Below, piece by piece: positions 7,215-55,827 of a DNA stretch of 64,000 nt. Location of the stretch: positions 83,463-147,462 of the IMG/VR virus record IMGVR_UViG_3300026488_000246; one strand, 5' to 3'. Source of the DNA: a virus (lineage: Duplodnaviria; Heunggongvirae; Uroviricota; Caudoviricetes). Made by a program: the position numbers and the translations under genes. A model generated the notes under the pieces. It did no database searches, was not told the DNA's origin, and worked only from the letters and a program-made list of their open reading frames with translations. Each line of letters opens with the position of its first letter. The first letter of the stretch is position 1.

Positions 7215-7267
7215 TAGTAACTAACCATATAATTGTATACAACTATATTACAAAATGAAACGCTTCC
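7215..7267 (+). promoter_or_regulatory. conserved intergenic cassette A (TAGTAACTAACCATATAATTGTATACAACTATATTACAAAATGAAACGCTTCC)
   Basis: Six copies in the window (7215, 7621, 8014, 41907, 43207, 55774). Each ends 10-20 nt upstream of a start codon. Confidence 0.55.
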
Positions 7268-7286
7268 TCAGTTTCTTGGAGGAAAC

Positions 7287-7640
7287 ATGGTTTCTTTTCT
7301 ACATCCATCGAGTATAACTGCTTCAGCTCTAGTATGTGCTACTTTTAGAAAAGTTAAACCAGCTAAGACTAAATCGATAACGTTTCTTAGTATTAGCTTT
7401 GATGATCTAATACAACATTTAGAATTACATGCAGAAGAAACATATTGTCGTTCATCAGGTGTAAAGCTCTCGATACAAACAAATGGAAATCCATCTAGAT
7501 TAATTGCAGAATTAATAGCACCAAAAATGGATGAGGAGTATGTAAGTCGACGAGAATCACTACAAAGGGAACTTGAATTGCTTGGTTACACAATTGTAGA
7601 TGGGTTCAGCATGAAACAGTTAGACCTAACCTTATTGTAA
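7287..7640 (+). CDS. small protein, divergent member of the TNSS N-motif family (paralog of 7681..8016)
   Basis: RBS GGAGG. Shares VRPAKTK...ISF.ELIQ.LELHAEE...RESLQ.ELELLG with the next gene. N-terminus SFLHPSSITAS. Confidence 0.6.
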   Translation: MVSFLHPSSITASALVCATFRKVKPAKTKSITFLSISFDDLIQHLELHAEETYCRSSGVKLSIQTNGNPSRLIAELIAPKMDEEYVSRRESLQRELELLGYTIVDGFSMKQLDLTLL

Positions 7641-7664
7641 CCATATACAACTTGAAACGTTTCC
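7621..7664 (+). promoter_or_regulatory. intergenic cassette A (short variant)
   Basis: CCTAACCTTAT...CTTGAAACGTTTCC. Overlaps the stop codon of the upstream gene. Confidence 0.45.
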
Positions 7665-7680
7665 GTGATACGGAGGTTTC

Positions 7681-8016
7681 ATGAGATCTTTAAACTCATC
7701 ATTCATTACAAACAGTAGCACAACTGTTACTTTCGTTAGATTAAGAAGAGTTAGACCAGCTAAAACCAAAATGATAACAATGTTGAATATTTCGTTTGAA
7801 GAATTAATTCAACAACATCTTGAGTTACATGCAGAGGAAGCAGTAGATGGCTTTGGTTCACAAATTATTGTTGAAACTGTAGAAGAACCAAGATTACTTG
7901 CTAGGCTATGCTCCACTAGTGTTTACTCTGAATATGAAGATAAACGAGAATCTTTACAAAAAGAACTAGAGCTACTTGGTTTTTCAGTGATTGATGAGGT
8001 CTCTGTTGATTGTTAG
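7681..8016 (+). CDS. small protein of the TNSS N-motif family
   Basis: N-terminus MRSLNSSFITNSSTTVTFV. Confidence 0.7.
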   Translation: MRSLNSSFITNSSTTVTFVRLRRVRPAKTKMITMLNISFEELIQQHLELHAEEAVDGFGSQIIVETVEEPRLLARLCSTSVYSEYEDKRESLQKELELLGFSVIDEVSVDC

Positions 8017-8060
8017 TTACCTAACCTTATACTATTTTTGTTAATTTAGAAACGTTTCCA
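8014..8060 (+). promoter_or_regulatory. intergenic cassette A
   Basis: TAGTTACCTAACCTTATA...TTAGAAACGTTTCCACCAATGGAGG. Confidence 0.5.
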
Positions 8061-8077
8061 CCAATGGAGGTTGCATA

Positions 8078-9289
8078 ATGTATCAAATCATAGTAAAGGA
8101 TAAGGATACAAACCAACTCTATAGGCTAAGCTATACAACTTACAGGAAAATGAAAGAGAATCCTGATTATCATTTATCGTATCCAGGGTTAGGACCAGTG
8201 ATTTCATCAAAAGAATTCTTTGATAAATTTGAAATAGTAGGTCCTACAACAGCTAAGGTTGATTATCCAACTATTAAGCAATGGTTGTATCAATCTGCTA
8301 GTTGTAAAGGACAGTATGTAATAGCGGAAGATAACGAAGGTAATAGTTATGTAACCTATGCACACACAACACTAGGTAAGCAAATTATCCAATTTATAAA
8401 AGGTGAAACTGATAGAATCTTGTATTATGGTCAAGATGTAACGGATATCATCAAACATCTTAATTTTCGGTTTCTAACTCATACTCAATATAGTAAATGG
8501 AAACAAGATAAGGAAGTGAAGCCACTTAGAACCTTCATATCTACCAAACTTGGTATACGTCCTTCTGTGGATGTTGAAAAACTTTTTCACCATTTCTTTT
8601 TCAAATCAAAGCTTACAGGTAAAACGTATACCTTATCCATTAACTACACCAGGAATGATTTTGATCATAGGCTAAGCTTTGAGGAAGTATACTATAAGAA
8701 ATGCCCTGCATGGCTCAAAATTCGCATTTCACCAAAGCTATTCTTATCTTTATTTGAATTCACGGGTGAAGAGTTTTATGGAATGAGATCTAGACCTATG
8801 CATTATCCATCTTTATTTGAATCTGATGAAGCTTTATCTATTCGTCATAATAGACTCTATGATCCACAATTAGATATGGTAATCAACCTCAAAGATAATC
8901 GTTGTGTCATAGATTGGTTGTTTAAAGGCGAATTTGTGAAGTATGGTGTAGCATTCAAACATACAGTTTCACACTTTAACGTTATAACCAAAGAAATTCT
9001 TAGCAAAAAGAAAGCTTTAACATTCTACAACTATTATCTGCTTCGTGGACTACATGAGAAAGATCTACCTTCCATAACAAAGCTTAATAGACCAATGGAT
9101 GAGTTTTATGTTTATCTTGTACTTAAGAATGGTAGAATCTTAAAGCATGCTGTTGTAGCTAAGCATATTTCACAAGTTTATCATAAACATAAGGAAATGT
9201 TGGATAGCATTATAGTTTTCAAAGTAGCAGGACGTTTCAATTATCTTGAAGGTAAAATCAAAGAGGTTCGTAAATGTTTGTTGAAGTAG
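8078..9289 (+). CDS. hypothetical protein
   Basis: 403-aa ORF directly downstream of cassette A and its embedded RBS. Confidence 0.7.
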   Translation: MYQIIVKDKDTNQLYRLSYTTYRKMKENPDYHLSYPGLGPVISSKEFFDKFEIVGPTTAKVDYPTIKQWLYQSASCKGQYVIAEDNEGNSYVTYAHTTLGKQIIQFIKGETDRILYYGQDVTDIIKHLNFRFLTHTQYSKWKQDKEVKPLRTFISTKLGIRPSVDVEKLFHHFFFKSKLTGKTYTLSINYTRNDFDHRLSFEEVYYKKCPAWLKIRISPKLFLSLFEFTGEEFYGMRSRPMHYPSLFESDEALSIRHNRLYDPQLDMVINLKDNRCVIDWLFKGEFVKYGVAFKHTVSHFNVITKEILSKKKALTFYNYYLLRGLHEKDLPSITKLNRPMDEFYVYLVLKNGRILKHAVVAKHISQVYHKHKEMLDSIIVFKVAGRFNYLEGKIKEVRKCLLK

Positions 9290-9660
9290 GTTTGCTTAGA
9301 TGCTCTAGACCTTTACCCATGAAACATAGGGGATCTTTGTGGATCCCTGTTGCCTCTATATTTCGACGTTTCAAACATAATGTTTTGCTGTTTTACAATA
9401 CGTTTATATATGAACCTATAACTACCTTTAAGCAATACGGAATTTTCTATAACTTAGGATCTATTATGGACGAGGATTGTCAGCGATTTATTGCCATTAA
9501 TGCTAAATCCCATGAAAAGTTTCTTAAGTTTTATAGAGAAACTAGGCATGAGGATTCATGGTCACAATTTGTTTACAAAAGTATTAAAACTTTACCTGAT
9601 TTCTTGCTAGAATTCAATGTTGAAAAACAATGTTTTGAGAGGTTTGAAATTGGTTGTTGA
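9274..9660 (+). CDS. hypothetical protein
   Basis: ORF with GAGGT RBS. Overlaps its neighbours. Confidence 0.45.
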   Translation: MFVEVGLLRCSRPLPMKHRGSLWIPVASIFRRFKHNVLLFYNTFIYEPITTFKQYGIFYNLGSIMDEDCQRFIAINAKSHEKFLKFYRETRHEDSWSQFVYKSIKTLPDFLLEFNVEKQCFERFEIGC

Positions 9661-10165
9661 AGGAGACGCATATGCAACAGTTGATATCATAAAACTTTAC
9701 AGGAAACTATCACCAGAACCAAACAGATTCATTCAGCTCTCAGATTCCAATCCTTTGAAAGATTTAGGATTGCTTGCAATGTACTATCGAAAGGGTCGTT
9801 ACTATTTAGCAGATCCTGAATATCCCGATTATGAGATTACTTGTCCATTAAGTTTATGGGAAAAGTCAAAACAATATTACACACGCATATCAACTTTACT
9901 CATATATGTTATTGATGAGTATGAGACCGTACTGAAGAAGGACTACGATCTAACACTAGATTATTGGCCATACTTCGTTTGCAGAAAGCATTATGAGCTT
10001 TATGGTCCTTATACACCTTTACGAGTTGTTTTCAAGTTTAATTCTAATGGTTGGTTAAAGGATATCCAAGTTACTGGTCTTGAAGGCAGTCAATATGAAC
10101 AAGACACAAAACAACCAACATCTTTCATAAGCAAAGTTAAAAGGTTCTTGCGAGGCGTGCTATGA
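9617..10165 (+). CDS. hypothetical protein (start uncertain)
   Basis: 182-aa ORF. No clear RBS. Confidence 0.4.
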   Translation: MLKNNVLRGLKLVVEGDAYATVDIIKLYRKLSPEPNRFIQLSDSNPLKDLGLLAMYYRKGRYYLADPEYPDYEITCPLSLWEKSKQYYTRISTLLIYVIDEYETVLKKDYDLTLDYWPYFVCRKHYELYGPYTPLRVVFKFNSNGWLKDIQVTGLEGSQYEQDTKQPTSFISKVKRFLRGVL

Positions 10166-10727: not shown

Positions 10728-11678
10728 ATGACAAAAGAGCAAGTCAAACAAGAATTACTGAAATACTTCCCTAACCAAGAAGAAGCTATAAAAACTCTAA
10801 CACAACTTGGTCTTTCAGAGGATGAAGCAAAATCAAGAGTTAACTGTTCAATTAATGAAATAGTGATTTATGAAGCAGCTCATAGGATCATTGATAGGTT
10901 AGCTTCATATTCAGATGACATTTTAGAAAGGTTTGCAAAGATTCTCAATGTAGAAGATAGTAGATTTTCATTCAAAACAGAATTCCTATTCAGAGCTGTA
11001 TACTTCCTTAAGAAAAAGGCTTATGCACAATACATCATTGAGAGAGAAGGAGCTCTCATTCAAGAAATAGCTCAATCAAACATTGGAGTTAAGTCGGATG
11101 TACCGGAATTAACTCGTATAATGATAAGAGACCTATTCAAAGTTATAATGTATACGAATTGTGATCAAACTCTGATAAATCGAGCATTAACGCTATGGGA
11201 GAGCAAATTTAGAAAACTGATCCGAGAAAGGTCAGTATCAATATGTACTCCTTGTGGATTCAATAAGGAACTTAAAGAATACAAGAACGTTAATGATTGC
11301 ATTAGAGGTATGCTTCTCTATAACGAGCTTATAGGACAAGAATACTTCAAGGTTGGTATGAAAGGGTTCAAAATTTACTGTAATGGTTTTGATTATACTA
11401 AGCTTAGATTGGATGCAAAACAATTCCATGAGAAACTTATGAATGTTGCTAAGAAATTGGATGAGCTTAGCGGCAAACAAACATATACTAAGAAACCAGA
11501 AAAACTACTTGACAGAATTGTTATACCCGATGATTCTGAAAGAATTCCTGATTGGATCAAGCTTGATGAGAAAACAATAATGGATAAGGTTTTCGTTTCT
11601 AAAGCCAATGAAATCCTAGAACCTTTAGGCATACAACTTGATACAGGTACATCTGTGGCATTACAAGATTTATTCTAG
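10728..11678 (+). CDS. hypothetical protein
   Basis: 316-aa ORF with RBS GAGGTG. Confidence 0.7.
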   Translation: MTKEQVKQELLKYFPNQEEAIKTLTQLGLSEDEAKSRVNCSINEIVIYEAAHRIIDRLASYSDDILERFAKILNVEDSRFSFKTEFLFRAVYFLKKKAYAQYIIEREGALIQEIAQSNIGVKSDVPELTRIMIRDLFKVIMYTNCDQTLINRALTLWESKFRKLIRERSVSICTPCGFNKELKEYKNVNDCIRGMLLYNELIGQEYFKVGMKGFKIYCNGFDYTKLRLDAKQFHEKLMNVAKKLDELSGKQTYTKKPEKLLDRIVIPDDSERIPDWIKLDEKTIMDKVFVSKANEILEPLGIQLDTGTSVALQDLF

Positions 11679-11694
11679 CGAGAGGAATACTAAC

Positions 11695-12096
11695 ATGTCA
11701 TTAAGAAAGACTCATCAATTAATGCTTAGTTGGCCAACCTTAGAAAAAGGGACAACTTTAGGAATTTCTGAAAGGTGTTTAGATACCTTTATGGAGCTGG
11801 TTAAAAATGCTAAAGGGTTACCAGTATATCAGTTTGTGTCCGTTGACTCAATACTAGATTCTCCTCATCAATATCAAATTGGAGAGGTTAGCAATGTAAA
11901 GTTTGAAGGTCATCCATTGATAACTGTAGAATACTATTACGGTAAAGCACCGAAAGATGAATCCGTTCTTGTTCCTATCACGTTAGGAAAGCCTGTTCCT
12001 AACTACGAAATCTATCATGTAAGTATAGAAGATATAGAGGAACTCATAGGATTCATGCTTTATCCTTTGTCATTGATCAAGCAACATCTAAACTAA
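11695..12096 (+). CDS. hypothetical protein
   Basis: RBS GAGAGGAA. ATG at 11695. Confidence 0.55.
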   Translation: MSLRKTHQLMLSWPTLEKGTTLGISERCLDTFMELVKNAKGLPVYQFVSVDSILDSPHQYQIGEVSNVKFEGHPLITVEYYYGKAPKDESVLVPITLGKPVPNYEIYHVSIEDIEELIGFMLYPLSLIKQHLN

Positions 12097-12111
12097 AGTA
12101 TGAGGTAGCTT

Positions 12112-12471
12112 ATGATCTCCACAGTTTGCAGATCATTTGTGACTAATTCTAGCACATCTACGACTATTGTTTACTTTCAAAAAGTAGGACCTATAGATGC
12201 AGAAGAAGTAAGGAATACGCTTCCAGAACCTTTCAAAAAGTATGCTGATGATATTATCAAAGCTTTGTTATCCATAAGAGCAGCTGAAGTATTTGTTGTG
12301 ATTGAGTATGATAACTATGGGATTATGTCTTATATAATCAGCAAATGTCCAAGAAAGCAATATAGTCCACTTGTAACGATTCCTGGTGGTTACATAGATG
12401 AACGTTTACAGGATTGCTTTCAGAAACTGAAAGGTTTAAGACTTGTTGATTCTTATAGCTTTATACACTAG
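12112..12471 (+). CDS. small protein of the TNSS N-motif family
   Basis: N-terminus MISTVCRSFVTNSSTSTTIVYF. Immediately upstream of a radical SAM gene. Confidence 0.7.
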   Translation: MISTVCRSFVTNSSTSTTIVYFQKVGPIDAEEVRNTLPEPFKKYADDIIKALLSIRAAEVFVVIEYDNYGIMSYIISKCPRKQYSPLVTIPGGYIDERLQDCFQKLKGLRLVDSYSFIH

Positions 12472-12485
12472 GATGGGAGGTTCTA

Positions 12486-13556
12486 ATGAAAATTGGATAT
12501 GGAGTTAACTGGTTTCTTACAAGAAAATGTAATCTAAAGTGCTCCTATTGTGCAGTAATCAATATGAAAACGTTTCAGGAAGCTTATGGTCACATTGATC
12601 CATTCAAACAAGATGTTGATATTGAAGAAGCTAAAGAATTCATCAAAAGATTAAAGAAGCATAATCCAGATGCATTTCATATGTTTTTGGGTGGTGAACC
12701 TACTGTTTACAAGCATCTTGTAGAATTGGTTGATTTCTGTAACAAAGAAGGTGTATTGTATACTGTCATTACAAATATGACCGATTACTCTTACAACAAA
12801 CTTAAGCAGATTATAGATGAAGTGGGATATCTTAATGGACTAAGCTTTACTGTTGATCCCGTTCTATGGGATGAAAACTATCCGAAGGATGATGATAGAT
12901 ACAGAAAATCAAAGGAAGCTTACGAGAAATTCATAACATTTAGAGATGATCCCAGAATCAGAGAATTTGTTGGTATAGTTGGAGTTGATAGTCAGAATAT
13001 CAAATATCTGCATAGAATGTGTGACGATCTAACTAAAGCTGGTGTTTGGATAGATCTGATTCTGCTTGAAACAAAGCTTAATAAGTACTACGATTTCCCA
13101 TCACCATTAGACTATGATTTACTGGTTTGGGATACAGAGAAACATAGAAAGATTCTTATGGAAGTTTACGAGAAAGCTGAAAAGGGAGAATACACTGTAT
13201 TATTCCATCCTGTAATCAAATACAAAATGGTTCCTAATCTTCCACAAAAGTATATTTGCACCATTGATAAAAGAATGGACACCATGACTATTGATGCTGA
13301 TGGAAAACTAAGGCTATGTTTAAGAATCAGAGGAGTTAAAACACAAGAATTTCATATGCTTGATATTCTTGATGAAAACGGAAATCTAACTGATAAGTTT
13401 CAAGAAGCTCTTAAAGCTATGCAATGGGATAAAAAGAATTTCTGTTATGGATGTCAATGGACATGCCCTATGGCTGGTGAATTGATTGCTGATGGTATTA
13501 TGAGTCCAGAATTGATGAATCATAGAAACATAGAAATTCAACCAAAAACAAAATAA
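12486..13556 (+). CDS. radical SAM enzyme, SPASM-like
   Basis: CxxxCxxC motif (CNLKCSYC). FLGGEPT motif. C-terminal NFCYGCQWTCPMAG. Confidence 0.75.
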   Translation: MKIGYGVNWFLTRKCNLKCSYCAVINMKTFQEAYGHIDPFKQDVDIEEAKEFIKRLKKHNPDAFHMFLGGEPTVYKHLVELVDFCNKEGVLYTVITNMTDYSYNKLKQIIDEVGYLNGLSFTVDPVLWDENYPKDDDRYRKSKEAYEKFITFRDDPRIREFVGIVGVDSQNIKYLHRMCDDLTKAGVWIDLILLETKLNKYYDFPSPLDYDLLVWDTEKHRKILMEVYEKAEKGEYTVLFHPVIKYKMVPNLPQKYICTIDKRMDTMTIDADGKLRLCLRIRGVKTQEFHMLDILDENGNLTDKFQEALKAMQWDKKNFCYGCQWTCPMAGELIADGIMSPELMNHRNIEIQPKTK

Positions 13557-13569: not shown

Positions 13570-14745
13570 ATGAATAGCGTTAAAGAAACATACAGAAACG
13601 TCAACATATTTATTGACGATAGCAATCATGGATTTCTTCAGGGTATAACTTCAGATCATAATGGTAATGTAATCGTGTGTGGTCATGATGAAGATTTCAT
13701 CAGTTTGCGTATAACTAAATTCGATAACGTTTTAAGGGATGTTAAACAAGAAATAGTTTTAAGAGATGAAAAATGCAAATATTTTTACGGGATAACAGTT
13801 GACTCTGATAACGTATTTGTATGCGGTATGATTGACTATGATTTCTGCATTGTTAAGCTTAATAGTAGTCTAAATCTGATTAAGCAAGTAATAGTAGATA
13901 TTGGGGAAGCAACAGCCAGCTATGGAATGGCTACAGACTATAATGGAAATGTGTTTGTATGTGGGTCTCATGACAAAGATTTCTACATAGCTAAGCTGAA
14001 TAACGATTTGAATATTGTTAAACAGATAACCATTAACAATGATGGAGATGGAATTTTTCGAAATCTAGCTACGGACTGTAATGGAAACGTGTTTGTATGT
14101 GGTTACATTAATACCGGTATACTAAACAACGGCCTTTATATAGCGAAGTTTGATAATGATTTGAATGTCATCAAACAGATGGTAATCGAAAGTGGTAAAC
14201 GTAGTTATCTTATCGGAATAACTATTGATGATAACGGAAACGTATTTGTATGTGGGAAGACTTGTAATGAATGTTATGTGGCTAAGATCGCTAATGATTT
14301 AAATCATATTAAACAAATAGCAATCAATGGTGGTAAGAAAACCGATTTTCATGGGATTTCTACAGATCCTCATGGAAATGTATTCGTATGTGGACAAACC
14401 AAAGAGAATCTTAGTTCGAACTTATGCGTTGCAAAATTTGATAACAATCTACTTCTTGTTAAGCATGTTGTATGTGCTTGTGATGGAGTAACAATCAGTC
14501 GTGACGGACTAACAATTGATTCTAATGGTAACGTATTTACATGTGGGACATTTCATAGTGATTTCGTTAATACTCCCTTCATAATTAAATTCAATGATAA
14601 CCTTGATTATCCTGATAAGTTGAAAGCTGGTTCTTATACATTCACCTTTAGTGAACCAACTTGGATTTCTACTGTACAAGATTATCCTGTTACAGTAGAA
14701 AACTGGGTTCCCATTATTCAGAACTGGATACCACGAGTGGTATAG
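13570..14745 (+). CDS. beta-propeller repeat protein (NGNVFVCG / IAKFDNDLN repeats), fibre-like
   Basis: About 9 repeats of roughly 40 aa. C-terminal SYTFTFSEPTW...W..Q.W module shared with 14765 and 19827. Confidence 0.65.
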   Translation: MNSVKETYRNVNIFIDDSNHGFLQGITSDHNGNVIVCGHDEDFISLRITKFDNVLRDVKQEIVLRDEKCKYFYGITVDSDNVFVCGMIDYDFCIVKLNSSLNLIKQVIVDIGEATASYGMATDYNGNVFVCGSHDKDFYIAKLNNDLNIVKQITINNDGDGIFRNLATDCNGNVFVCGYINTGILNNGLYIAKFDNDLNVIKQMVIESGKRSYLIGITIDDNGNVFVCGKTCNECYVAKIANDLNHIKQIAINGGKKTDFHGISTDPHGNVFVCGQTKENLSSNLCVAKFDNNLLLVKHVVCACDGVTISRDGLTIDSNGNVFTCGTFHSDFVNTPFIIKFNDNLDYPDKLKAGSYTFTFSEPTWISTVQDYPVTVENWVPIIQNWIPRVV

Positions 14746-14764
14746 AAGTTTAACTAAAAAGAAG

Positions 14765-15991
14765 ATGGAGAAAATGAACAAAGCTACAGAACCATATGAA
14801 AGTGTCAGTGTATTTACTGGCAACAACGTTGAATATAATAATCTTCTTGGTATGGTTACAGATCATGATGAAAATGTGTTTATATGTGGAGAGGTTTTTG
14901 TTAAACGATGGTTCAGAGCTGGTTTCGATATTGTTAAATTTGATAGCACTTTAAACTTCATCAAATATATAGCAATAGGAAATAATGAATACAACATTGA
15001 ACTGCATGGAATGATAGCAGACGGTACTGGTATCATATTTGTTTGTGGAGAAATTGGTAATCATTATAACGACGATTTCTACATAGCTAAACTTGATGGT
15101 AATTTAAATCTTGTTAAGCAAATTGCTATCAATAGTGGTAAACCATATAATCGTCTTTATGGAGTAACAGTAGACTCCAATGGGAACGTGATCGTTTGTG
15201 GAAGTACTAATGATGGTCACTACTATAATGGTTATATTGCTAAATTCGATAACGATTTAAATCCAGTTAAGCAAATTACTATCGACGATAGATATTGTGG
15301 TGATCTTTATGGGATAGCCGTTGATTCCAATGATAACATATTTGTTTGCGGTGCCACGAAAGGTAAACCCTACGTTGCCAAACTTGATAATAAACTAAAT
15401 GTTATCAAACAGATATCCATTGATATTGGTGAACCTGGCTACCTCAATAAGGTGACCATTAGTTCCAGTAATAATGTTTTCATAGGTGGTATCTACGATG
15501 GGCATATTTATGTAGCTAGATTTGACGATGATTTGAACCTTATTAAACAAGTTACTATTAATACTGGAACTAATAATAGCTTTTACAGTTTCGCTGTAAA
15601 CTCTTACGATGATCTATTTATATATGGGCGAATTAAGAACTATCCTGATTGGGACTTCTATATCGCAAAACTTGATAATGAGTTATTTCTTCTTAGACAA
15701 GCAATTATTGATGGTGGTCATCATGTTACTTTACCTTTAAAGGATGAAATACTTGTATGCAGACGAAGTATCACTTATTCTGCTGATAATATGCTTATAG
15801 CTAAATTCGACAAAAACTTAAGTAATCCTAGTGTATTGAAAACAGGTTCTTATACATTTACTTTTAGTGAACCAACATGGTTAGTGATTGTACAGGATTG
15901 GCCTGTCATAACAGAAGATTGGGTTCCTACTGTACAGAATTGGGCACCACGAGCGGCAAACAGTTTCATTGTAACTGAAGAGTTCGCATAG
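14765..15991 (+). CDS. beta-propeller repeat protein, paralog of 13570
   Basis: Same repeat unit and C-terminal module. Confidence 0.65.
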   Translation: MEKMNKATEPYESVSVFTGNNVEYNNLLGMVTDHDENVFICGEVFVKRWFRAGFDIVKFDSTLNFIKYIAIGNNEYNIELHGMIADGTGIIFVCGEIGNHYNDDFYIAKLDGNLNLVKQIAINSGKPYNRLYGVTVDSNGNVIVCGSTNDGHYYNGYIAKFDNDLNPVKQITIDDRYCGDLYGIAVDSNDNIFVCGATKGKPYVAKLDNKLNVIKQISIDIGEPGYLNKVTISSSNNVFIGGIYDGHIYVARFDDDLNLIKQVTINTGTNNSFYSFAVNSYDDLFIYGRIKNYPDWDFYIAKLDNELFLLRQAIIDGGHHVTLPLKDEILVCRRSITYSADNMLIAKFDKNLSNPSVLKTGSYTFTFSEPTWLVIVQDWPVITEDWVPTVQNWAPRAANSFIVTEEFA

Positions 15992-16644: not shown

Positions 16645-17376
16645 ATGAAAGAAGGATTGAGAATTGTTGCTACTTATCAATGTAATAGAAATTGCAAGTT
16701 TTGTTATCAAGCCTCTAAAGAATCACCATACTTGGATACTGAAACATTGAAGAAATGTTTAGATTATTTGAAGTTTACTAAGAATTTCATTCCTATCTAT
16801 GTAACAATCCAAGGTGGTGAAGTTACAATTGACATGGAAAGATTACGAGAAATTGCAAAATTGGTTGATTACTACTATCCACAAGTTTTCAGGAAATCTG
16901 TCACAAGCAATGGTGATGCAGATGTTAGCGATTATGAATCATTAGCTTTGTATGGTATAACTCATTTATCATTTAGTTTGCACGGTAAGAATAAGAAACT
17001 GGAAGATAAACTCAAGTATCTTGCAAAAAGTGGATTCTTTACTATAAGAGTTAATTGTTTTGCTCATCAAAACATAGAAAATCTTAGGTATGTTTACGAT
17101 TTTTGTGCAAGCAATAAAATTCAACTTACATTTTGTGAAGATCTGAGAAATAAGATTGTTGAAGACGTTACTGATAAAATCGTAAGATTTGTTGTTGGAC
17201 ATTCCGATGTAGAAATCATAAGACATAAGTTTCAACATATAATCATTGATAACAAAAGAAAGTTTAGATGTTGGATCTATAAGCATTTAGACAGTTATGA
17301 TTACAACAACTATATCATTCTTCCGACAGGAAAGATTGTCGATAATTTTGATTTGGTTATTCAATCCAAACTGTAA
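16645..17376 (+). CDS. radical SAM enzyme (short, no C-terminal Cys cluster)
   Basis: CNRNCKFC and QGGEVT motifs. Confidence 0.7.
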   Translation: MKEGLRIVATYQCNRNCKFCYQASKESPYLDTETLKKCLDYLKFTKNFIPIYVTIQGGEVTIDMERLREIAKLVDYYYPQVFRKSVTSNGDADVSDYESLALYGITHLSFSLHGKNKKLEDKLKYLAKSGFFTIRVNCFAHQNIENLRYVYDFCASNKIQLTFCEDLRNKIVEDVTDKIVRFVVGHSDVEIIRHKFQHIIIDNKRKFRCWIYKHLDSYDYNNYIILPTGKIVDNFDLVIQSKL

Positions 17377-17392: not shown

Positions 17393-18262
17393 ATGGAAAT
17401 TGTTAAAATCAGAAAATTTACTAATGGTTGGGTAGCAGCAATCAGGTTATCAGATGGAAGACTTATTGAGAGCACAAACACATGCCTTCCTTTACATACG
17501 GAATTGAGAGGTTTCAATAACAAAAGAACTACGAATGCAATACTATCCTATGATTTTACGAAAACTTACTTCCATGAAAAGAATATGGTAGGTGTTTCGA
17601 CACAATCTGGTTGTCCAATTATGTGTAAGTTTTGTGCAGTAAATGCTGTAACTAGAAAACATGGATGGAGAAACTTAACTGATGATGAAATTGTGCAACA
17701 AGTTGATTTTGCATTAAAGGTAACAAAAGACCTATTTAACTATGATTACTTTGAAAGTAAGCCTAAACTATTCAGAATCTTGTTTACAAGAATGGGCGAG
17801 CCATCCTTAAACATCGAAAATGTAGTTAATGCCATACAAAAACTAAAACATAAGTTTCCAGAAGCAAGAGTTCAGATTTCAACAATTGGAATTCCTGAAT
17901 CAAAAGATCTTGTTCATGAATTAATGAAACTTGAAGATGAGCTATCAGATCATGATTTCCTTGAACTTCAGTTCTCAATTCATTCAACAGATATGAATTT
18001 TAGGAGATGGTTACAAACTCCAAGAGTTATGGACAATTCAGAGATCAATAAACTTGCACAGGAATTCTATTACAAACATCCAAGAAAGTGGAAGGTTACA
18101 TTAAACTTTACTTTATCTCAGAAAACTCCATTTGACGTTAATGAATTACGAAAACAGTTTGATCCTGGTTGTGTATTCATAAAACTATCACCATTAAATG
18201 AGAACCTTGTAAGTAAATCTAACAACTTGAAAACTTTAATTAGGCAAGAAAACTATGTTTAA
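17393..18262 (+). CDS. RlmN/Cfr-family radical SAM methyltransferase-like
   Basis: VSTQSGCPIMCKFCAV, MGEPSLNIENVV, ISTIGIPE and FSIHSTD motifs, collinear with the RlmN motifs. Confidence 0.65.
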   Translation: MEIVKIRKFTNGWVAAIRLSDGRLIESTNTCLPLHTELRGFNNKRTTNAILSYDFTKTYFHEKNMVGVSTQSGCPIMCKFCAVNAVTRKHGWRNLTDDEIVQQVDFALKVTKDLFNYDYFESKPKLFRILFTRMGEPSLNIENVVNAIQKLKHKFPEARVQISTIGIPESKDLVHELMKLEDELSDHDFLELQFSIHSTDMNFRRWLQTPRVMDNSEINKLAQEFYYKHPRKWKVTLNFTLSQKTPFDVNELRKQFDPGCVFIKLSPLNENLVSKSNNLKTLIRQENYV

Positions 18263-19045: not shown

Positions 19046-19052
19046 AGATTTT

Positions 19053-19096
19053 GGCCCATGGTCCAGCTTTCTGGATCATGGGCCGTTTTTTTTTTT
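19053..19096. terminator. bidirectional terminator at the + to - strand switch
   Basis: GGCCCATGGTCCAG / CTGGATCATGGGCC, then T11. Confidence 0.75.
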
Positions 19097-19114: not shown

Positions 19115-19297
19115 TTACAGTTTCTTTCTTATAGAATCTTCAATTTTAGATTCCAATTTGCTTAGTTTCGTTTTAATTGTTTCAAGATCTTCCTTCACTT
19201 CATGCTTTATAGCAGCATGATTCTTATAAGCAAGAATCCCAAGAACGAAACCTATTAAAAATATTACGATATCTACTGTGATGCCAGGTACATGCAT
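19115..19297 (-). CDS. small membrane protein (one TM helix plus charged tail)
   Basis: IVIFLIGFVLGILAY. RBS AGAGGT. Confidence 0.5.
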   Translation of the reverse strand: MHVPGITVDIVIFLIGFVLGILAYKNHAAIKHEVKEDLETIKTKLSKLESKIEDSIRKKL

Positions 19298-19334
19298 AAC
19301 AATAACCTCTTCTAATTAGGGTTGTACAATGTAA

Positions 19335-19763
19335 CTATTCGGATTGCTCTGATTCCTTGGATTCTACACCATAGATTTCTTTGAATAGCTGACCAACTTT
19401 GTTTTGTCTTTCCATTATCCTGTCAATCAACTCTTTACCACCACTTACAGCAAATTCAACATCAGCTCTGGTTTGAATGGAATGATATTTTTGAAAAGCA
19501 TATTCAATCATAGCTCTATCTTCGGCAGGAATCCTGTTTTTAGTATTGGCTGGAAGAGCTTCATAAATTCTAGAAAGCAAAGCAAATATCAATGAAATTG
19601 CTTTAGCATTATCAGCTACACTATCATGAATATCGAAAACTTCATTGTTAACTCTATATCTCATTTTACCTTTCTTAGTTAAAGGTAGTTGATCTGGCTC
19701 TTCTACTACTAGTTTCTTGAATAAACCTGGTTTTACTTGTTTTTTCTTAATTTTGAGTTTCAT
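19335..19763 (-). CDS. hypothetical protein
   Basis: ATG at 19763 with RBS AAGGAGG. A hairpin at 19797-19817 separates it from the fibre gene. Confidence 0.6.
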   Translation of the reverse strand: MKLKIKKKQVKPGLFKKLVVEEPDQLPLTKKGKMRYRVNNEVFDIHDSVADNAKAISLIFALLSRIYEALPANTKNRIPAEDRAMIEYAFQKYHSIQTRADVEFAVSGGKELIDRIMERQNKVGQLFKEIYGVESKESEQSE

Positions 19764-19826
19764 TATGATCCTCCTTAGTTTGCAGGATAGAAAAAGGATG
19801 GTGGGAAGAACCCACCAAAACAAAAG

Positions 19827-22800
19827 TTACTCAGTCCATAAGTCAACTTGAAATCTATCAACATAAACGTCTTTATCACCATTAATAACTAGTCTTAGAT
19901 ACCTAGCATTCTTAGATATATCTTTATAAGTCATAGTTACCCAATCTGAGTTGTAAGTGTAAGTTTGGGATTCAATTGGTTTAGTATTCTTAGGTATTAC
20001 GACCTTTGTTATTGAAGTAAGTTCTTCTTTTGTTATGATTTTGACTTCTCCAATACCTCTTCTATCGTAGTAGTAATCTACTTCATTAGGTGTAAATGAA
20101 ACTGGTTGTGGAGACCAACTTTGTGTGGTGGGTGTCCATGATTGTGTAGCAGGTGACCAACTCTGTGTAGTAGGTGCCCATGATGGTTCATTAAATGTAA
20201 ATGTATAAGAACCTACTGTTACTGAATTAGGATGATCTAAATCATTATTAAATTTAGCTATGTAGAAATTCCGATGGCTATTATGAATATCATAAACATA
20301 ACCACATACGAATATATTACCATTGGAATCAGTTGTTACACCTTGAAAAATTTCATCATTTGTACTATCAATAGTAATCTGTTTAATTAGGTTTAAATCG
20401 TTGTCAAATTTAGCTATATAGGAATCGTCATTAGAACCATTATAAGTGCGCCCGCATACGAATACATTGTTATTGGAATCTGTTGTTATTCTGTAAAGAT
20501 TATCATTTCTACTACTTTCAATAGTTATTTGCTTAATAAGATTCAAATCATTATCAAATTTTGCAACATAGAAATTATAATCTGAGGAATTGCTATAACT
20601 ATGTCCACATACAAATACATTATCATAAGAATCTGTAATTATTCCATGACAAATATCTGAATTGCCGCTATTAATTGTTATCTGTTTAATGAGATTTAAA
20701 TTGTTATCAAATTTTGCAATATAGAAATTCAAAACAGAACCATTATAAGTATCGCCACATACAAATATATTACCATTAGAATCTACAGTAATATCATAAA
20801 GATGATCAACATAACCACTATTAATAGTTATTTGTTTAATTAGGTTTAAGTCATTATCAAATTTAGCTATGTAGAAATCTTCATTAAAACCGCATACAAA
20901 TATATTACCATTGGAATCTGTAGTTATTCCATGAAATTCATCACCTTTACCACTGTCTACAACAATATGTTTAACAAGATTTAAACTGTTATCAAATTTT
21001 GTAATGTAAAATTCCAAGCGAGAATCATTATCAGCATCAACTTGCCCGCATACAAATACATTATCATTGGAGTCTACAACTATATCTAAGAACCTACTAT
21101 AAGACTTATCAATGATTATTTGCTTAGTAATGTTGAAATGATTGTCAAATTTTGCTATATATGCTTTATTATCTAAGTTCCCACATACAAATACATTATT
21201 GTTAGAATCTGTTACTATTCCGTAAAGCTGACCTTGCTTACTATCATTCCCAACCACAAAAGTTCCTAGTTCCTTCACAACTTCAACTTTTGATACTTCC
21301 TTATCTTCATCATTAACCTTTATAACATCTCCAGATCTTACTAAATCCTTATCTAGTTCTTTAACGACTACATAATTGTTTCCAGTTTTGATTATCTGAG
21401 AAGTAACATCTAAATCTTTCCAAGTACATCTCTCATAAACATCTTCAAATGCAAATTCTACTCTTATGCTATTTTCTTTGTATATATCTGATGGTGGATT
21501 TTTGAGATTAAGAGAAGATATATCAACTTTATAGACATTTTCCTTAACTGTGTAAGAACCTTTATCCCAAGTATAAGATACTTCTGTTGGAGCCCAAGAT
21601 TGAGTAGTAGGAGACCAACTTTGAGTTGTTGGTGCCCATGATTGTGTAGTAGGTAACCAAATTTGATCAGTTGTAGTCAAATCCGGTTCAGTAAATAAAA
21701 ATGAATAAGACCCAACTGTTATTGAACTTGGATGATCAAGGTTATTGTTAAATTTAGCTACAAAGAAATCATAATTAGAACTGTCTCCTATATATCCACA
21801 TACAAATATATCACCAGTAGAGTCTATAACTATATCTCTTGGTATATCATGTTTTCCACTATTTATTTGAATCTGCCTGATTAAATTCAAATTGCTATCA
21901 AATTTAGCTATGTAAAAGTCTTTATTAGAACCATTATCAATACTACCGCATGCAAAAATATTTCCTTCAGAATCAATTGTTAATCCGAGTAATTCACCTC
22001 CCATATTTTCAATGGTGGCTTGTTTAATCAAGTTCAAATCATTATCAAATTTAGCTACATAAAGTCCTCTATCATGATCATTATGAGTATGACCGCATAC
22101 AAATACATTACCATTGGAATCTGTAACTATACCAACGAGTATAGCATAAACTCTAGCGTCAATAGTTATTTGCTTAATAAGATTCAAATCATTATCAAAC
22201 TTACCTATGTAGAAATCTTGATCAGAACCATTATAAGTATATCCACATACGAATACATTTCCGTTAAAATCAATAGTTATATTGTAAAGCCAATCATTAG
22301 TGTTGTTTATAGTTATTTGCTTAATAAGATTCAAATCATTATCAAACTTACCTATGTAGAAACTGTTATTGGTATGACCACATACAAATACATTATTATT
22401 GGAATCTATTGTTATTCCAAGAAATTCTTCACTGTTACCGCCATCTACAATAACTTGTTTAACTAAATTCAAATTGTTATCGAATTTAGCTACATAGAAA
22501 TCTTCTTTAGAACCATTACGAGTATATCCACATACAAATATGTTTCCATTAGAATCCGTTGTTATTCCTTGAAGATAATCAATGTAACCGCTATCAATAG
22601 TAACTTGTTTAACCAGATTTAAGTCATTATCAAGTTTAGCTATGTAAAAATCCTGGTTGGGACCATTATTAATACAACCACATACAAATATATTACCATT
22701 GGAATCAGTTGTTATTCCATAGAGATAATCATCTTTACCGCTGTCACCAACAGCCATATAATACTCAACATTTTCAGTAGTTTCTTCAATCTTATTTACA

Positions 22801-23018: not shown

Positions 23019-23073
23019 AAACTTCTACCTCTCTCTTGAAATTAATTGTTGAATTGAATGGGCTGGGGGTAGG

Positions 23074-26740: not shown

Positions 26741-26761
26741 ATATTAAGCCTCCTATTACAA

Positions 26762-28498: not shown

Positions 28499-28550
28499 TA
28501 TACACTACCTCTTATTGTTTTTTCGTAATCATAAGTCAAAAAGTAGTTAA

Positions 28551-32886: not shown

Positions 32887-32889
32887 ACT

Positions 32890-35282: not shown

Positions 35283-35601
35283 AGCACTTCCCTCCTATTT
35301 CAGATTTTTTTCAAGTTTGAATAATAGCTCAAACGTTTTAACAGATGATTATCAAGTTTCAAAAGAGTATTTTAAGAAAACAAACCTTACAAAAAAAAAA
35401 ACGTAACCGCCTACGCAAACTGGTGATACTTCCAACAAGGTTGGGAACCAACAACATCCTGGGAGCCAACCCTAATGAACCTTCATGTGTTCATCAATAA
35501 GGTGCCAGCATCTTGAGGCAACAATAGCATGTGGGTAAACATTTCCCACATATTTTTGTGTTCTAATAGTGGGGTGGCTAAGAAAGTACCACCCCCAAAA
35601 A

Positions 35602-36566: not shown

Positions 36567-36693
36567 AACAGTCATATCCTCCTTTGTTTGTTCAACAATA
36601 AGTTCGAGAAACATTTATATTTTTCTGATGGGAGGGCCAACTGGCCCTCCTAGCAAGGTGAGGTTGGGGAGGAGTCATTTTATTGCTCAAAAG

Positions 36694-38756: not shown

Positions 38757-38787
38757 TATGAAAAATAGAACTAAATTTGGAGGACTC

Positions 38788-41909: not shown

Positions 41910-41960
41910 TTACCTAACCTTATAATTGTATACAACTATATTACAAAATGAAACGCTTCC
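41907..41960 (+). promoter_or_regulatory. intergenic cassette A
   Basis: TAGTTACCTAACCTTATAATTGTATACAACTATATTACAAAATGAAACGCTTCC. Confidence 0.55.
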
Positions 41961-41969
41961 GAGGATGGT

Positions 41970-42500
41970 ATGTTAAAATCGTTAATCGACTCCGTAAGAA
42001 TATTTGATAGTGATTTCATTGCAATATTCGAGCAAAATTACACAGGTGAGTATGAACCTTTGAATCATACCTATGAATCATTCATACCTTTTATTCCCAA
42101 GGACTACAAAGATTCTGTGTTTCGAATTGAGATACTTTTCGTGACAAACAAAGATAAACTTCCATTACCATCTGTCATTAGGAAACGATATTGTGAACTT
42201 GGAACTTTTGCTCTTGCTTTTATTGGATCTGGACACGTGGAGATTGATTTCCTGCGTTATAAACTAGCTGTAAATCTTAGCAAATTCAAAGACAATCTAA
42301 AACTACTTTTGGAAGTCTTTAGAAGCTTATCTGACTGGGAACTTGTTAAACTTATACGCGCCCCAGCTAACTTGCTAATTGAAACATATGAAGGCAAACT
42401 GATTCCATTAGTTTATTCCAAAAGACCCTTACCAGTAAAAGATGTAAAGTCATTGCATACTATGAAAAATATTTGCTTCCGTGCTGAGAGCATAGATTAG
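41970..42500 (+). CDS. hypothetical protein
   Basis: Downstream of cassette A. Confidence 0.65.
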   Translation: MLKSLIDSVRIFDSDFIAIFEQNYTGEYEPLNHTYESFIPFIPKDYKDSVFRIEILFVTNKDKLPLPSVIRKRYCELGTFALAFIGSGHVEIDFLRYKLAVNLSKFKDNLKLLLEVFRSLSDWELVKLIRAPANLLIETYEGKLIPLVYSKRPLPVKDVKSLHTMKNICFRAESID

Positions 42501-43209: not shown

Positions 43210-43264
43210 TTAGGAACCTAACCTTATAACCTTATACAACAATTGTTAATTTTGAAACGCTTCC
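43207..43264 (+). promoter_or_regulatory. intergenic cassette A
   Basis: TAGTTAGGAACCTAACCTTATAACCTTATACAAC...TTTTGAAACGCTTCC. Confidence 0.5.
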
Positions 43265-43274
43265 GAGGATTGAA

Positions 43275-43643
43275 ATGAAATCTATCTCAATGACATATGT
43301 AACGAATAGCTCAACTTTAACATGCATTGTTATCGTAAGAAAGGATATAGATCTACCAACTTATGAAGAGATTAAGGATGAATTAACAAAATCTTTTGAC
43401 AAGTTTTTCAGAAACTATCCGGAAGATTTTAAGGAAGAAATTAAGTTGAAACTTCGAGATATGTATGATTTCATGAGACATGAGATTACAACCAGCAAAG
43501 ATGAATATGTCATGTTTGACATTCGTGCAATCGAGGGTGGGTCTTTGATAGATCAAGATTCACCAGCTGTTTATGCTTTAGCTTTTGTTGTACATCAGGT
43601 TCTTGCTAAATGTGGATATATTTACGAATATGAAAGACATTGA
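43275..43643 (+). CDS. small protein of the TNSS N-motif family
   Basis: N-terminus MKSISMTYVTNSSTLTCIVIV. Confidence 0.7.
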   Translation: MKSISMTYVTNSSTLTCIVIVRKDIDLPTYEEIKDELTKSFDKFFRNYPEDFKEEIKLKLRDMYDFMRHEITTSKDEYVMFDIRAIEGGSLIDQDSPAVYALAFVVHQVLAKCGYIYEYERH

Positions 43644-43648
43644 TGCAT

Positions 43649-43695
43649 GGCTCTGTAGGTTAAGAAGACCTACAGAGCCGTTATCTTTATTTATG
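43649..43695 (+). terminator. rho-independent terminator
   Basis: GGCTCTGTAGGT ... ACCTACAGAGCC, then a T-rich tail. Confidence 0.7.
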
Positions 43696-54317: not shown

Positions 54318-54353
54318 AAGACTAGTGTAAACTAATAAACAAGGAGGATCATC

Positions 54354-54602
54354 ATGAGAAAAGTACTTCTCGTGGTACTTCTAGGGTGTCTCTTAAGCGC
54401 ACCATCTTATGCTAGTGTATGGCAAACTCAATGTGCAGGATGCCACAATGGGTCTTTAGCACCAAGTAAGACTCAACTGAAAGCTAAGTATTCCAAAAAC
54501 GAGTTTGTTAAGAGAGCATTAGAATCAAGCAATCCTATGATGTCTGCTTTCAAAAACAACAAAGATGTTATTCAGAAAGCTGCTGATGAATTATACAAGT
54601 AG
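54354..54602 (+). CDS. small secreted mono-haem c-type cytochrome-like protein
   Basis: Signal peptide MRKVLLVVLLGCLLSAPSYA. CxxCH haem-binding motif (CAGCH). Downstream Met residues (NPMMSAF). Confidence 0.5.
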   Translation: MRKVLLVVLLGCLLSAPSYASVWQTQCAGCHNGSLAPSKTQLKAKYSKNEFVKRALESSNPMMSAFKNNKDVIQKAADELYK

Positions 54603-54615
54603 CAAGGAGATGAAT

Positions 54616-54924
54616 ATGAAACTTGTATGCCCTAAATGTGGTACACCCATAACAAAAGATACGTTATTTGTAAACGTTGATTTTGTGTTAGGTATTCCTA
54701 TTTACTCTAAAGCATTTGGATACAAGGATGGTAAGGTTGTGGAAGTAGAGGAATTTTGCGAACCTGATATATCTGGAGTTGGAAGCATAGAATTCATCTG
54801 TAAGAAGTGTAATTCCCCATTGGAATCTAAAGAGTTGCATGACATATATGAGAAAGTTTATGATGAATCAGATTGTGATTATGTAGCAGCCATAAAAGCT
54901 GTTTACGAAAGTTTAGAAGAATAA
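54616..54924 (+). CDS. zinc-ribbon protein
   Basis: CPKCGT...CKKCNSP. RBS AAGGAG. Confidence 0.5.
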   Translation: MKLVCPKCGTPITKDTLFVNVDFVLGIPIYSKAFGYKDGKVVEVEEFCEPDISGVGSIEFICKKCNSPLESKELHDIYEKVYDESDCDYVAAIKAVYESLEE

Positions 54925-54941
54925 GAGTTTCAATAGCAACA

Positions 54942-54968
54942 GGGAGGGTCAAGAATCCCTCCCTTTTC
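54942..54968 (+). terminator. rho-independent terminator
   Basis: GGGAGGG ... CCCTCCC, then TTTT. Confidence 0.65.
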
Positions 54969-55000
54969 CCCACAAAACTAAAGAAAAAGGAGGTAGAACC

Positions 55001-55447
55001 ATGAGGAGTTGCTCTGTTGGATTCGTAACTAACAGCTCAAGCTATGTTGCTTGTATCATTTATTCTGGTAAGTTTGACAAAGAGAAGTTTGATGCATTTA
55101 GCAAAAACATACTCAATCACAAGTGGATGAGCGACGAGTTTAAAAATGATGAAACTGTCAAGCAAATCACACCTGTAATCATTGAGAAACTTAAGAGAAT
55201 CTTGGAACCATCCACAACAGTAACTTTTGCATTTGAAAATATGTACGGAAATCCACCACATTGCACAATTGCAGGATGTGATGGTGTGCTTGATATTCGA
55301 GATTACTTTCCAGAAGAATGGTTTGAAAGTATGGATAGTGCACCAGAAATGTGGCTAACTAATGGTTACTGGTTCTGCGATCAACTTGAAAATCTACTAC
55401 AAGAATCTGGATTCACTATTCCAAAAGTTGTGTTTGACTTCCGTTAA
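55001..55447 (+). CDS. small protein of the TNSS N-motif family
   Basis: N-terminus MRSCSVGFVTNSSSYVACIIY. Confidence 0.7.
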   Translation: MRSCSVGFVTNSSSYVACIIYSGKFDKEKFDAFSKNILNHKWMSDEFKNDETVKQITPVIIEKLKRILEPSTTVTFAFENMYGNPPHCTIAGCDGVLDIRDYFPEEWFESMDSAPEMWLTNGYWFCDQLENLLQESGFTIPKVVFDFR

Positions 55448-55773
55448 AGAAGAGATGATGGTGAATTCTAAGTAGTATGTTGGATCAGACTTTAAAACTG
55501 GTCACTAACTCTTATCTTGGAAGATGGAACTCTCGAAAAACGTTAACTTTACAATAAACTTTTAGATAGCTTTCAAAGATTTGAAGGATTATCTGGGGGG
55601 GAAGTCAATCTCCCCCCCATTGATCTCCTATAATCGGCTTAAAGCGTACAATAAGAGAATAGAGCGCTTAGAAATCGGATCACTAAGAGCGATGTTATGA
55701 CGAGAATGATCGTTATTTCAGGTGAAGGATGAAGGTGTTGTATGCATTCAATAAATCTTTGTGTTTACCATCA

Positions 55774-55827
55774 TAGTAACCTAACCATATAATTGTATAC
55801 AACTACATTACAAAATGAAACGCTTCC
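55774..55827 (+). promoter_or_regulatory. intergenic cassette A
   Basis: TAGTAACCTAACCATATAATTGTATACAACTACATTACAAAATGAAACGCTTCC. Confidence 0.55.

Follow-up and report, generated by a model that had tools for sequence, protein, structure and literature searches.

The window analysed here is a stretch of 64,000 nt from a tailed phage (Caudoviricetes; IMG/VR record IMGVR_UViG_3300026488_000246, positions 83,463 to 147,462). It contains six copies of an intergenic cassette of about 50 nt, each immediately upstream of a start codon. The original prediction had placed six such sites in this DNA, and all of them were recovered, every one on the coding (plus) strand. The 11-mer GAAACGYTTCC, which closes the cassette at its 3' end, has exactly six perfect matches when both strands of the 64 kb are searched, all on the plus strand (7257, 7654, 8049, 41950, 43254, and 55817). 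The copies are listed below with E values from an nhmmer --max search of the window, for which a profile of 17 full copies was used.

7218-7267, plus strand: full copy 1 (E 2.6e-14), 19 nt before the ATG at 7287
7624-7664, plus strand: shortened copy 2 (E 4.8e-5), 16 nt before the ATG at 7681
8019-8059, plus strand: degenerate copy 3 (E 0.11), 18 nt before the ATG at 8078
41909-41960, plus strand: full copy 4, the reference copy (E 8e-16), 9 nt before the ATG at 41970; block A at 41912-41919, TATAAT hexamer at 41921-41926, block B (TATACAAC) at 41929-41936, TATATTAC core at 41937-41944, block C (GAAACGCTTCC) at 41950-41960
43213-43264, plus strand: full-length variant copy 5 (E 4.7e-12), 10 nt before the ATG at 43275
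55776-55827, plus strand: full copy 6, with core TACATTAC (E 8.6e-15), 15 nt before the ATG at 55843

Four copies were thus returned at E values of 5e-12 or better, and the profile found no further copy in the 64 kb. With one mismatch allowed, the 11-mer gives 9 matches against 0.98 expected from shuffles, and the long core TGTATACAACTATATTACAAAATGAAACG gives three (7234, 41927, 55794 with one mismatch) against 0.00 expected. Four of the six copies are full-length; the two at 7624 and 8019 are 8 nt shorter, with a gap between CCTAACC and GAAACG of 29 instead of 37 nt.

A gapless alignment of 20 copies, taken from the window and from related contigs, yielded the consensus (T)AG-N-AACCTAACC-W-(TATAAT-like hexamer)-NN-TATACAAC-T(A/T)TATTAC-A(AAA/TTT)T-GAAACGYTTCC. 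Conservation begins abruptly at AACC, within AACCTAACC, and ends as abruptly at TTCC, the flanks being unrelated between copies. Block A and the hexamer, which follows CCTAACC-W, keep a constant spacing in 20 of 20 copies, both shortened ones included; the hexamer is less conserved than the neighbouring blocks, and its last position is C rather than T in five of the 20. The spacer is either AAAA or TTTT, with no intermediates, a swap easier to reconcile with a spacer in DNA than with a site in RNA. The core region reads CAAC-TATATTAC-AAAATG-AAACG at 7244 and 41937, TACATTAC at 55804, and TTTATTAC elsewhere. Concerted evolution from a genome-specific core variant was considered and rejected, since one and the same genome carries TATATTAC, TACATTAC, and TTTATTAC copies.

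Individual copies depart from the consensus mainly in the centre. Copy 1 reads TAACTAACC-A-TATAAT-TG-TATACAAC-TATATTAC-AAAAT-GAAACGCTTCC. Copy 2 keeps blocks A, B, and C, having lost 11 nt of the centre (the TTATTACAAAA segment) and gained 3 nt between A and B, while copy 3 retains block A, followed by TATACT, and block C around a diverged centre. In copy 5, AATTGTTAATTTT takes the place of TTTATTACAAAAT, and the centre TTGTTAATTT is found in the copies at 8019 and 43213. The cassette is very poor in G (2-4 per 50 nt). In about half of the copies block C contains GAAACGTTTC, a perfect 10-bp palindrome, the other half having GAAACGCTTC, and units of the AACCTTATA type are doubled in several copies.

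The genes behind the cassette are mostly small and, over all copies, belong to at least six unrelated families. In the window they are those originally described, namely two clear paralogues with a distant relative, two unrelated hypothetical genes, and an SPFH/Band_7 gene, each with a Shine-Dalgarno (SD) sequence and with its ATG 9-19 nt from the 3' end of the cassette.

7287-7640 and 7681-8016, plus strand: paralogue genes behind copies 1 and 2, 47% identical to each other
8078-9289, plus strand: 403-aa hypothetical gene behind copy 3
41970-42500, plus strand: 176-aa hypothetical gene behind copy 4
43275-43643, plus strand: 122-aa gene behind copy 5, a distant member of the TNSS family
55843-56859, plus strand: SPFH/Band_7 gene behind copy 6 (PF01145, E 3.3e-35)

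The TNSS family of small proteins (7287-7640, 7681-8016, 43275-43643, and 55001-55447) shares an N-terminal (F/V)(I/V)TNSS(S/T), and three of its four genes are led by a cassette. It has no Pfam or PHROG match, and only three homologues were found among 5.8 billion clustered proteins.

It had also been claimed that the cassette often incorporates the stop codon of the preceding gene. This applies to the sites at 8014 and 41907, where the upstream open reading frame (ORF) stops at the TAG before the cassette, and to copy 2, which is entered by an ORF that stops at TAA (7638-7640). At 43207 the ORF ends 4 nt before the TAG, and no gene ends at 7215 or 55774. In 15 of the 20 aligned copies, the end of an ORF of 115 codons or more falls within -27 to +13 of CCTAACC. 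TAG was rejected both as a fixed element of the cassette and as evidence of recoding: TAA and TGA also occur as upstream stops, and of 90 stops counted over the whole genome 23 are TAG.

The rest of the genome and related phages were searched, as the original prediction had proposed, and the cassette was found again in both. Contigs from ENA that are 99.98-100% identical to the window extend the genome by 9.3 kb upstream (L020) and by 9.6 kb downstream (L021). Two further copies lie on L020 (1654-1703 and 3131-3181), and the 9.6 kb of L021 past the window and another 8 kb upstream contain none, giving eight copies in about 92 kb of genome. At least 10 further loci are present on contigs of metagenome Ga0256838, and in scans of IMG/VR, JGI metagenomes, and GTDB genomes the cassette occurred only there. 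Distant carriers proposed by pattern scans (L004, L005, L009-L011, L014-L018) were dismissed as chance matches. Two of the Ga0256838 contigs, L008 and L002, are 91-95% identical to the window; the others have the cassette alone in common with it, and these encode DNA ligase, SbcCD, RIIA, tail sheath, and baseplate wedge. On all contigs, every copy lies on the coding strand, 9-31 nt before a start codon, and ends just before the SD sequence. On L020, an HNH endonuclease gene (1076-1636) ends 18 nt before the cassette at 1654-1703, and at this site homing and the cassette may be connected.

No cassette is found in a 17-kb minus-strand block (19115-36575) that contains the endolysin, giant proteins with SBBP repeats, and a holin-family score. 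The SBBP-type beta-propeller proteins of the window (13570-15991, 19827-23018, and 23492-26740) are built from repeats of about 150 nt (50 aa); two of them, the giants of 1063 and 1082 aa, are on the minus strand. These proteins are probably fibres or act in host recognition.

The source is an uncultured jumbo phage with no close cultured relative as judged by megablast of 25 kb, the best protein identity being 34% (topoisomerase), and a topoisomerase-based search of IMG/VR gave no relative. A protein of the window is also present on a 161,948-nt JGI contig. The GC content is 33%. Genes of this genome include those for RNA ligase 1, a UvrD-like helicase, both topoisomerase II subunits, a B-family polymerase exonuclease, and NAPRTase; RIIA, SbcCD, and RnlA are also among the T4-like replication genes of the cassette neighbourhood. 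The endolysin combines GH108 and PG_binding_3 domains, which implies a bacterial host with peptidoglycan. An IS607-type element (38758-40720), composed of a serine-recombinase TnpA and a TnpB with OrfB_IS605 and Cas12f1-like TNB domains, lies inside the phage genome, 1.2 kb upstream of copy 4. G/T-rich tandem repeats with 47-nt and 21-nt units (5246-5344 and 5806-6033; 78-92% matches) lie on either side of a small gene cluster that immediately precedes a radical SAM gene (6103-7164) and coincide with an ENA assembly break, contig k141_94985 ending at window position 5617.

Genes for a multisubunit RNA polymerase (RNAP) begin 2.6 kb past the 3' end of the window, on L021, which is 99.98% identical to the window end. 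They are split into separate ORFs (L021 coordinates):

8670-9815: Rpb1_1/2 domains, the N-terminal part of beta'
10762-13164: Rpb1_4/5 domains, the C-terminal part of beta'
15138 onward: Rpb2_6/7 domains, the C-terminal part of beta

Split beta and beta' subunits of this kind characterize the phiKZ/AR9-type class. Between the two beta' parts lie a 172-aa ORF and a 413-nt spacer with a second motif, described below. The assignment is backed by tblastn matches to rpoC-like genes of other phages. Identity to bacterial rpoC is 24-34%, and by its sequence the polymerase may belong to the mReC lineage (metagenomic multimeric-RNAP-encoding Caudovirales; PMC7481178) and not to the phiKZ relatives. The word "promoter" is absent from the text of the paper on that lineage (PMC7481178). 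No single-subunit RNA polymerase was seen, and pooled PHROG scans of 50 ORFs (17 and 12 families returned, of up to 25 listed per pool) showed no transcription factor, sigma factor, or candidate regulator gene in the window.

Three terminator-like structures adjoin cassettes or the genes that they lead:

7172-7201, plus strand: intrinsic terminator, a 7-bp GC-rich stem and then GTTTTTATTC, located 16 nt before copy 1
43647-43691, plus strand: 15-bp hairpin with a T-rich tail, ending the single-gene unit of copy 5 (43275-43643)
56865-56895, plus strand: intrinsic terminator, ending the single-gene unit of copy 6 (the SPFH gene, 55843-56859)

Past copy 1, the next strong plus-strand terminator is at 19052-19095, and copy 1 heads a 12-kb co-directional block. 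Copy 6 closes a gene-free stretch of 330 nt. With a terminator before copy 1 and these 330 nt before copy 6, the genes behind both copies need a promoter there. Four radical SAM genes (6103-7164, 12486-13556, 16645-17376, and 17393-18262), which share a co-directional stretch of 12 kb with a methyltransferase and SBBP-repeat proteins, are enzymatic cargo unusual for a phage.

A host-type promoter is not apparent at these sites. The canonical sigma-70 arrangement (TTGACA-N16-18-TATAAT, with A2 and T6 of the hexamer) does not describe the cassette, which has no conserved -35 element at 16-18 nt; a sigma-70 scan was passed by only two of the six window copies, each by means of a non-conserved -35, and sigma-70-like sites are fewer across the window than in shuffles.

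The core of the cassette offers a different precedent. In jumbo phages with multisubunit polymerases, a conserved AT-rich motif near -10 precedes the early operons and is read by the virion polymerase (PMC7598289). The early-promoter consensus is TATATTAC in phiKZ, ...CCTACATTATY, containing TACATTAT, in EL, ...BTATATTACDWHDGTG in 201phi2-1, and ...KATATTATYWAAGTG in N1M2/OBP (PMC7058600). That of AR9 is AAATATATATTAT-(6N)-G+1, and the start sites of phiKZ and phiR1-37 are likewise 6 nt downstream (PMC5312081). The resemblance of the cassette core to phiKZ-type promoters was noticed before the polymerase genes were found. T(A/T)TATTAC followed, after 5-6 nt, by G or A, the predicted start, is present in half of the window copies (three of six) and in almost all of those found outside the window.

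The reading that we favour, with a probability of roughly 55%, is that the cassette is a promoter for the phage's own multisubunit polymerase, together with a conserved transcript start, and serves secondarily as a recombination module. In such a promoter, AACCTAACC-W and the TATAAT-like hexamer, followed by TATACAAC, would constitute an upstream recognition part, and the AT-rich core T(A/T)TATTAC would lie at about -10. Transcription would start about 6 nt downstream of the core, at the G or A opening GAAACGYTTCC. This 11-mer would thus be transcribed first, as a conserved initial sequence, and the resulting leader into the SD sequence and start codon would be short, unstructured, and poor in G. 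The W4 stretch would be a tolerated spacer, in keeping with the AAAA/TTTT alternation. Near-identical 50-nt copies before unrelated genes would, moreover, act as sites of homologous exchange at which gene-plus-cassette units are gained or lost. We infer promoter activity, the polymerase concerned, the start site, the temporal class, and the recombination mechanism from comparisons of sequence. Of the functions originally put forward, the phage-specific promoter is the best supported, by the failure of sigma-70 models, the terminators, the polymerase genes, and the core, a support that is circumstantial. The middle or late class attached to it found no backing, the cassette being absent from the minus-strand block of lysis genes and giant repeats; the temporal class is probably early or middle.

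The recombination part of the favoured reading draws on a comparison with the sister strain. In 11 kb of alignment with the window, L008 shows substitutions (91-95% identity) and a single large indel, which consists of a third paralogue of the 7287/7681 family plus an extra cassette. In the regions compared (7560-8110 of the window and 1590-2560 of L008), the insert is present in L008, is missing from the window, and falls between the left and right halves of window copy 3. Identity holds through TAGTTACCTAACCT in block A and resumes at TTTCCACCAATGGAGG in block C, so that both ends of the indel are inside cassettes. Indels bounded by cassettes are the pattern described for the promoter-early stem-loops (PeSLs) of T4-type phages (PMC4122927), and indels between close relatives, part of the PeSL description, are represented here by this one case. 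The proposal of a mobile or recombination element is supported by this one good case, and no sign of homing or transposition was seen.

A second motif, CATTTATAT (more fully WTCATTTATATWHWACTG), is found in the window on the plus strand only, at 4437, 29559, 36612, 36697, 49999, and 61223, six occurrences against 1.7 expected. Two of these are in the divergent region that opens the right-hand plus-strand block. Outside the window it occurs at the following positions:

L020, 507 and 8089: second motif
L021, about 9835: second motif
L003, 5668 and 1492: second motif

In four copies (one in the window and three in L020 and L021) a strong hairpin starts at the 10th nucleotide after TATAT, which is a G. 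This is the AR9 geometry, TATATTAT-(6N)-G+1, and such a promoter architecture thus appears to be in use in this phage. As far as can be judged from its sequence and position, the second motif is probably another promoter class of the same polymerase, producing transcripts with a hairpin at the 5' end. Neither the cassette nor the second motif occurs on the minus strand in the block 19115-36575, the copy at 29559 being on the plus strand; by analogy with phiKZ and AR9, this would be expected if the block were served by an inconspicuous late promoter. An archaeal TATA box, considered for both motifs in view of TTTATATA, was rejected, as the GH108 and PG_binding_3 endolysin implies a bacterial host. 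The aligned copies were also compared by eye with promoter consensus sequences, and the T4 late (TATAAATA), T4 MotA-box, ECF-type (TGAAAC...CGTATA), Bacteroidetes -7 (TAnnTTTG), and AR9 late (AACA-N6-TA) promoters were all set aside for misfits in spacing or conservation.

A number of observations weigh against a promoter read by the phage polymerase. The core 8-mer is not enriched in the window (7 matches on the plus and 2 on the minus strand, against about 8 expected per strand), and in such AT-rich DNA the match to TATATTAC may be due to chance; the cassette was, besides, compared with many consensus sequences. T(A/T)TATTAC is missing from three of the six window copies (7624, 8019, and 43213), and the AR9 virion polymerase was reported to be intolerant of single changes (PMC5312081). 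As promoters, the tandem copies 400 nt apart (7218, 7624, and 8019) would be redundant, and on Ga0256838_1000204 cassettes stand among tail sheath and baseplate genes, which argues against a purely early class. Orthologous copies differ at 0-4 of 50 positions, a conservation that does not exceed that of their flanks. Only one set of polymerase genes was seen in about 92 kb; it aligns with rpoC, and an mReC origin is possible. The centre of copy 3 is no simple chimera of two L008 cassettes, and with paralogous genes on either side the exact event behind the indel is ambiguous. Promoter activity is a deduction throughout, and the start sites are candidates.

Among the alternatives, it is unlikely that the cassette acts in RNA alone, as a leader or translational operator without a promoter of its own inside polycistronic mRNAs, whether as an unstructured, G-poor standby or enhancer region or as a repressor site in which the 3' CUUCC masks the SD sequence. 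All copies end shortly before an SD sequence, 9-31 nt from the start codon, and most abut the stop of the preceding ORF; both would suit such a role, and a 50-mer nearly free of G and of structure is like known enhancer leaders. In predicted folds the 3' CTTCC is able to pair with the downstream GGAGG in about half of the copies, where additional pairs flank the stem at 7257 and 7654, and the translational operator of the original prediction draws slight support from this pairing. However, RNAalifold applied to 15 copies found 0 conserved pairs, the z-scores of the CTTCC-SD hairpin range from -2.8 to +1.3 and are mostly near 0, and the distance to the SD sequence and start codon varies. In at least five copies (41950, 43254, L001-1453, L003-10494, and L007-2033) the SD sequence follows CTTCC immediately, so that the stem is impossible; an SD-masking hairpin was therefore rejected as a defining trait. 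The 50-mers have folding energies of 0 to -3.1 kcal/mol with z about 0, and Rfam at the gathering threshold gave 0 matches in the window; the cassette thus has neither the conserved structure nor the Rfam match by which a riboswitch, an RNase III site, or a ribozyme would be recognized. A role in RNA would, in addition, leave the invariant upstream half unexplained, would be disturbed by the AAAA/TTTT swap, and would not supply the promoter that the genes of copies 1 and 6 need. We also regard as doubtful an operator array, in which the GAAACGTTTC palindrome and the repeated AACC-W-TATA units bind a phage regulator for the co-switching of a gene set or for an elongation block such as that of the stoperators of L5-type mycobacteriophages. 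The perfect palindrome in about half of the copies, the duplicated AACCTTATA-type units, and the uniform orientation to transcription with adjacent stop codons speak for it. The remaining half has GAAACGCTTC and the copies show no preference for the perfect palindrome, 50 nt of asymmetric conservation far exceeds what a dimer operator needs, and none of the genes of the window was identified as a candidate regulator. Such operators need not compete with the promoter reading: they could, for instance, form a shut-off site at +1 to +10.

PeSLs, the cassettes of T4-type phages (Arbiol et al. 2010, PMC2839356; Comeau et al. 2014, PMC4122927), are the basis of another explanation that we consider improbable, in which the host RNA polymerase with a sigma-70-family factor uses the hexamer after block A as its -10, block A being an upstream or activator element, and the main role is early expression and modular shuffling. 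This would account for the fixed spacing of CCTAACC-W and the TATAAT-like hexamer in 20 of 20 copies, for the nearby T4-like replication genes (RnlA, UvrD-like helicase, topoisomerase II subunits, RIIA, and SbcCD), and for the indel with both ends inside cassettes (PMC4122927). Like the cassette, PeSLs are conserved intergenic units of about 50-100 nt that lead into an SD sequence and start codon, cluster between small accessory genes, and coincide with gene gains and losses between close relatives. Unlike in PeSLs, neither a sigma-70-like promoter (-35/N17/-10) nor an upstream stem-loop terminator is a constant part of it: the defining stem-loop precedes copy 1 only, the -35 is not conserved, and C replaces the critical last T of the hexamer in five of the 20 copies. 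T4-type phages, moreover, rely on the host polymerase, whereas the cassette phage encodes a multisubunit polymerase of its own. Very improbable, finally, is a selfish mobile or homing-associated element with no regulatory role, such as the target or footprint of a nuclease or transposase. Its sharp boundaries at unrelated loci, the copy directly after the HNH gene (L020 1076-1636), and the IS607-type TnpA and TnpB genes in the window might suggest one, but the aligned copies and their flanks show none of the marks of a transposable element or MITE (terminal inverted repeats, hairpin ends, or target-site duplications). Strict position and orientation before start codons would not be expected of such an element, nor would a cassette-free minus-strand block of 17 kb or the restriction, in IMG/VR, JGI metagenomes, and GTDB genomes, to a single phage lineage.

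Among known systems, the early promoters of the phiKZ/AR9 type are like the cassette in being highly conserved, AT-rich, present in many copies, and located before small genes on the coding strand. Its core, T(A/T)TATTAC or TACATTAC, is identical or nearly identical to those of phiKZ and EL, a conserved G or A lies 5-6 nt downstream as at the start sites of AR9, phiKZ, and phiR1-37, and conservation extends upstream as in 201phi2-1, OBP, and N1M2, where the motifs are 33-35 nt. At 50 nt, however, it is longer than any jumbo-phage early promoter, its upstream half contains the C-rich AACCTAACC where the others have plain AT-rich sequence, 11 conserved nt follow the predicted start, and three window copies have no core. 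The polymerase is closer to cellular rpoC than are the phiKZ enzymes and may be of the mReC type; the phiKZ/AR9 class has two polymerase sets, one of which is packaged in the virion, and a promoter motif of about 10 nt that stands before early operons and not before late genes, whereas the present enzyme is known from sequence alone.

Promoters of the T7-group single-subunit RNA polymerases span 23 bp, from -17 to +6. Like these, the cassette is long, near-invariant, and phage-specific, with a specificity block, a TATA-like melting region, and a conserved initial transcript; it is twice as long and has no evident sequence similarity to them. The start-associated sequence (SAS/ESAS) motif of Cluster K mycobacteriophages, which Pope et al. 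are said to have described in 2011, is reportedly 13 bp, contains the SD sequence, and lies 3-8 bp from the start codon. Both motifs recur directly before the start codons of some genes and not others, and both functions are unproven. Unlike the SAS, the cassette excludes the SD sequence, ends 9-31 nt from the start, is 50 nt long, and has no inverted-repeat extension, and thus it falls outside that class. The cassette-gene-terminator units of copies 5 and 6 (43213-43691 and 55776-56895) are like morons, the autonomous promoter-gene-terminator units of phage genomes, which, unlike them, are not known to have a common promoter cassette and are defined in temperate phages as prophage-expressed units.

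The cassette is real, specific to one lineage, and, at 50 nt, unusually long, and it stands in a phage group without described transcription signals. To judge from its composition and context, it would work both like a promoter of a phage polymerase and like a PeSL, while not fitting the definition of the latter. A further step, tentative at present, is that it represents the first recognisable promoter class of the deeply branching polymerase of an mReC-like jumbo phage, about 50 nt long, made of three parts (an upstream recognition block, a phiKZ-like AT-rich core, and a conserved transcribed start), and also a recombination module for the exchange of accessory genes. Should the promoter reading prove wrong, a clean lineage-specific repeat associated with gene starts would still stand. 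The cassette-bounded indel extends the idea of PeSL-type gene shuffling beyond the T4-type phages that use the host polymerase. Within this lineage, the cassette allows early or accessory transcription units to be annotated from the DNA sequence. Phages with multisubunit RNA polymerases are known mostly from metagenomes, and the candidate 50-nt promoter and the adjoining polymerase genes make up a pair that can be tested directly by in vitro transcription and tried in orthogonal expression tools.

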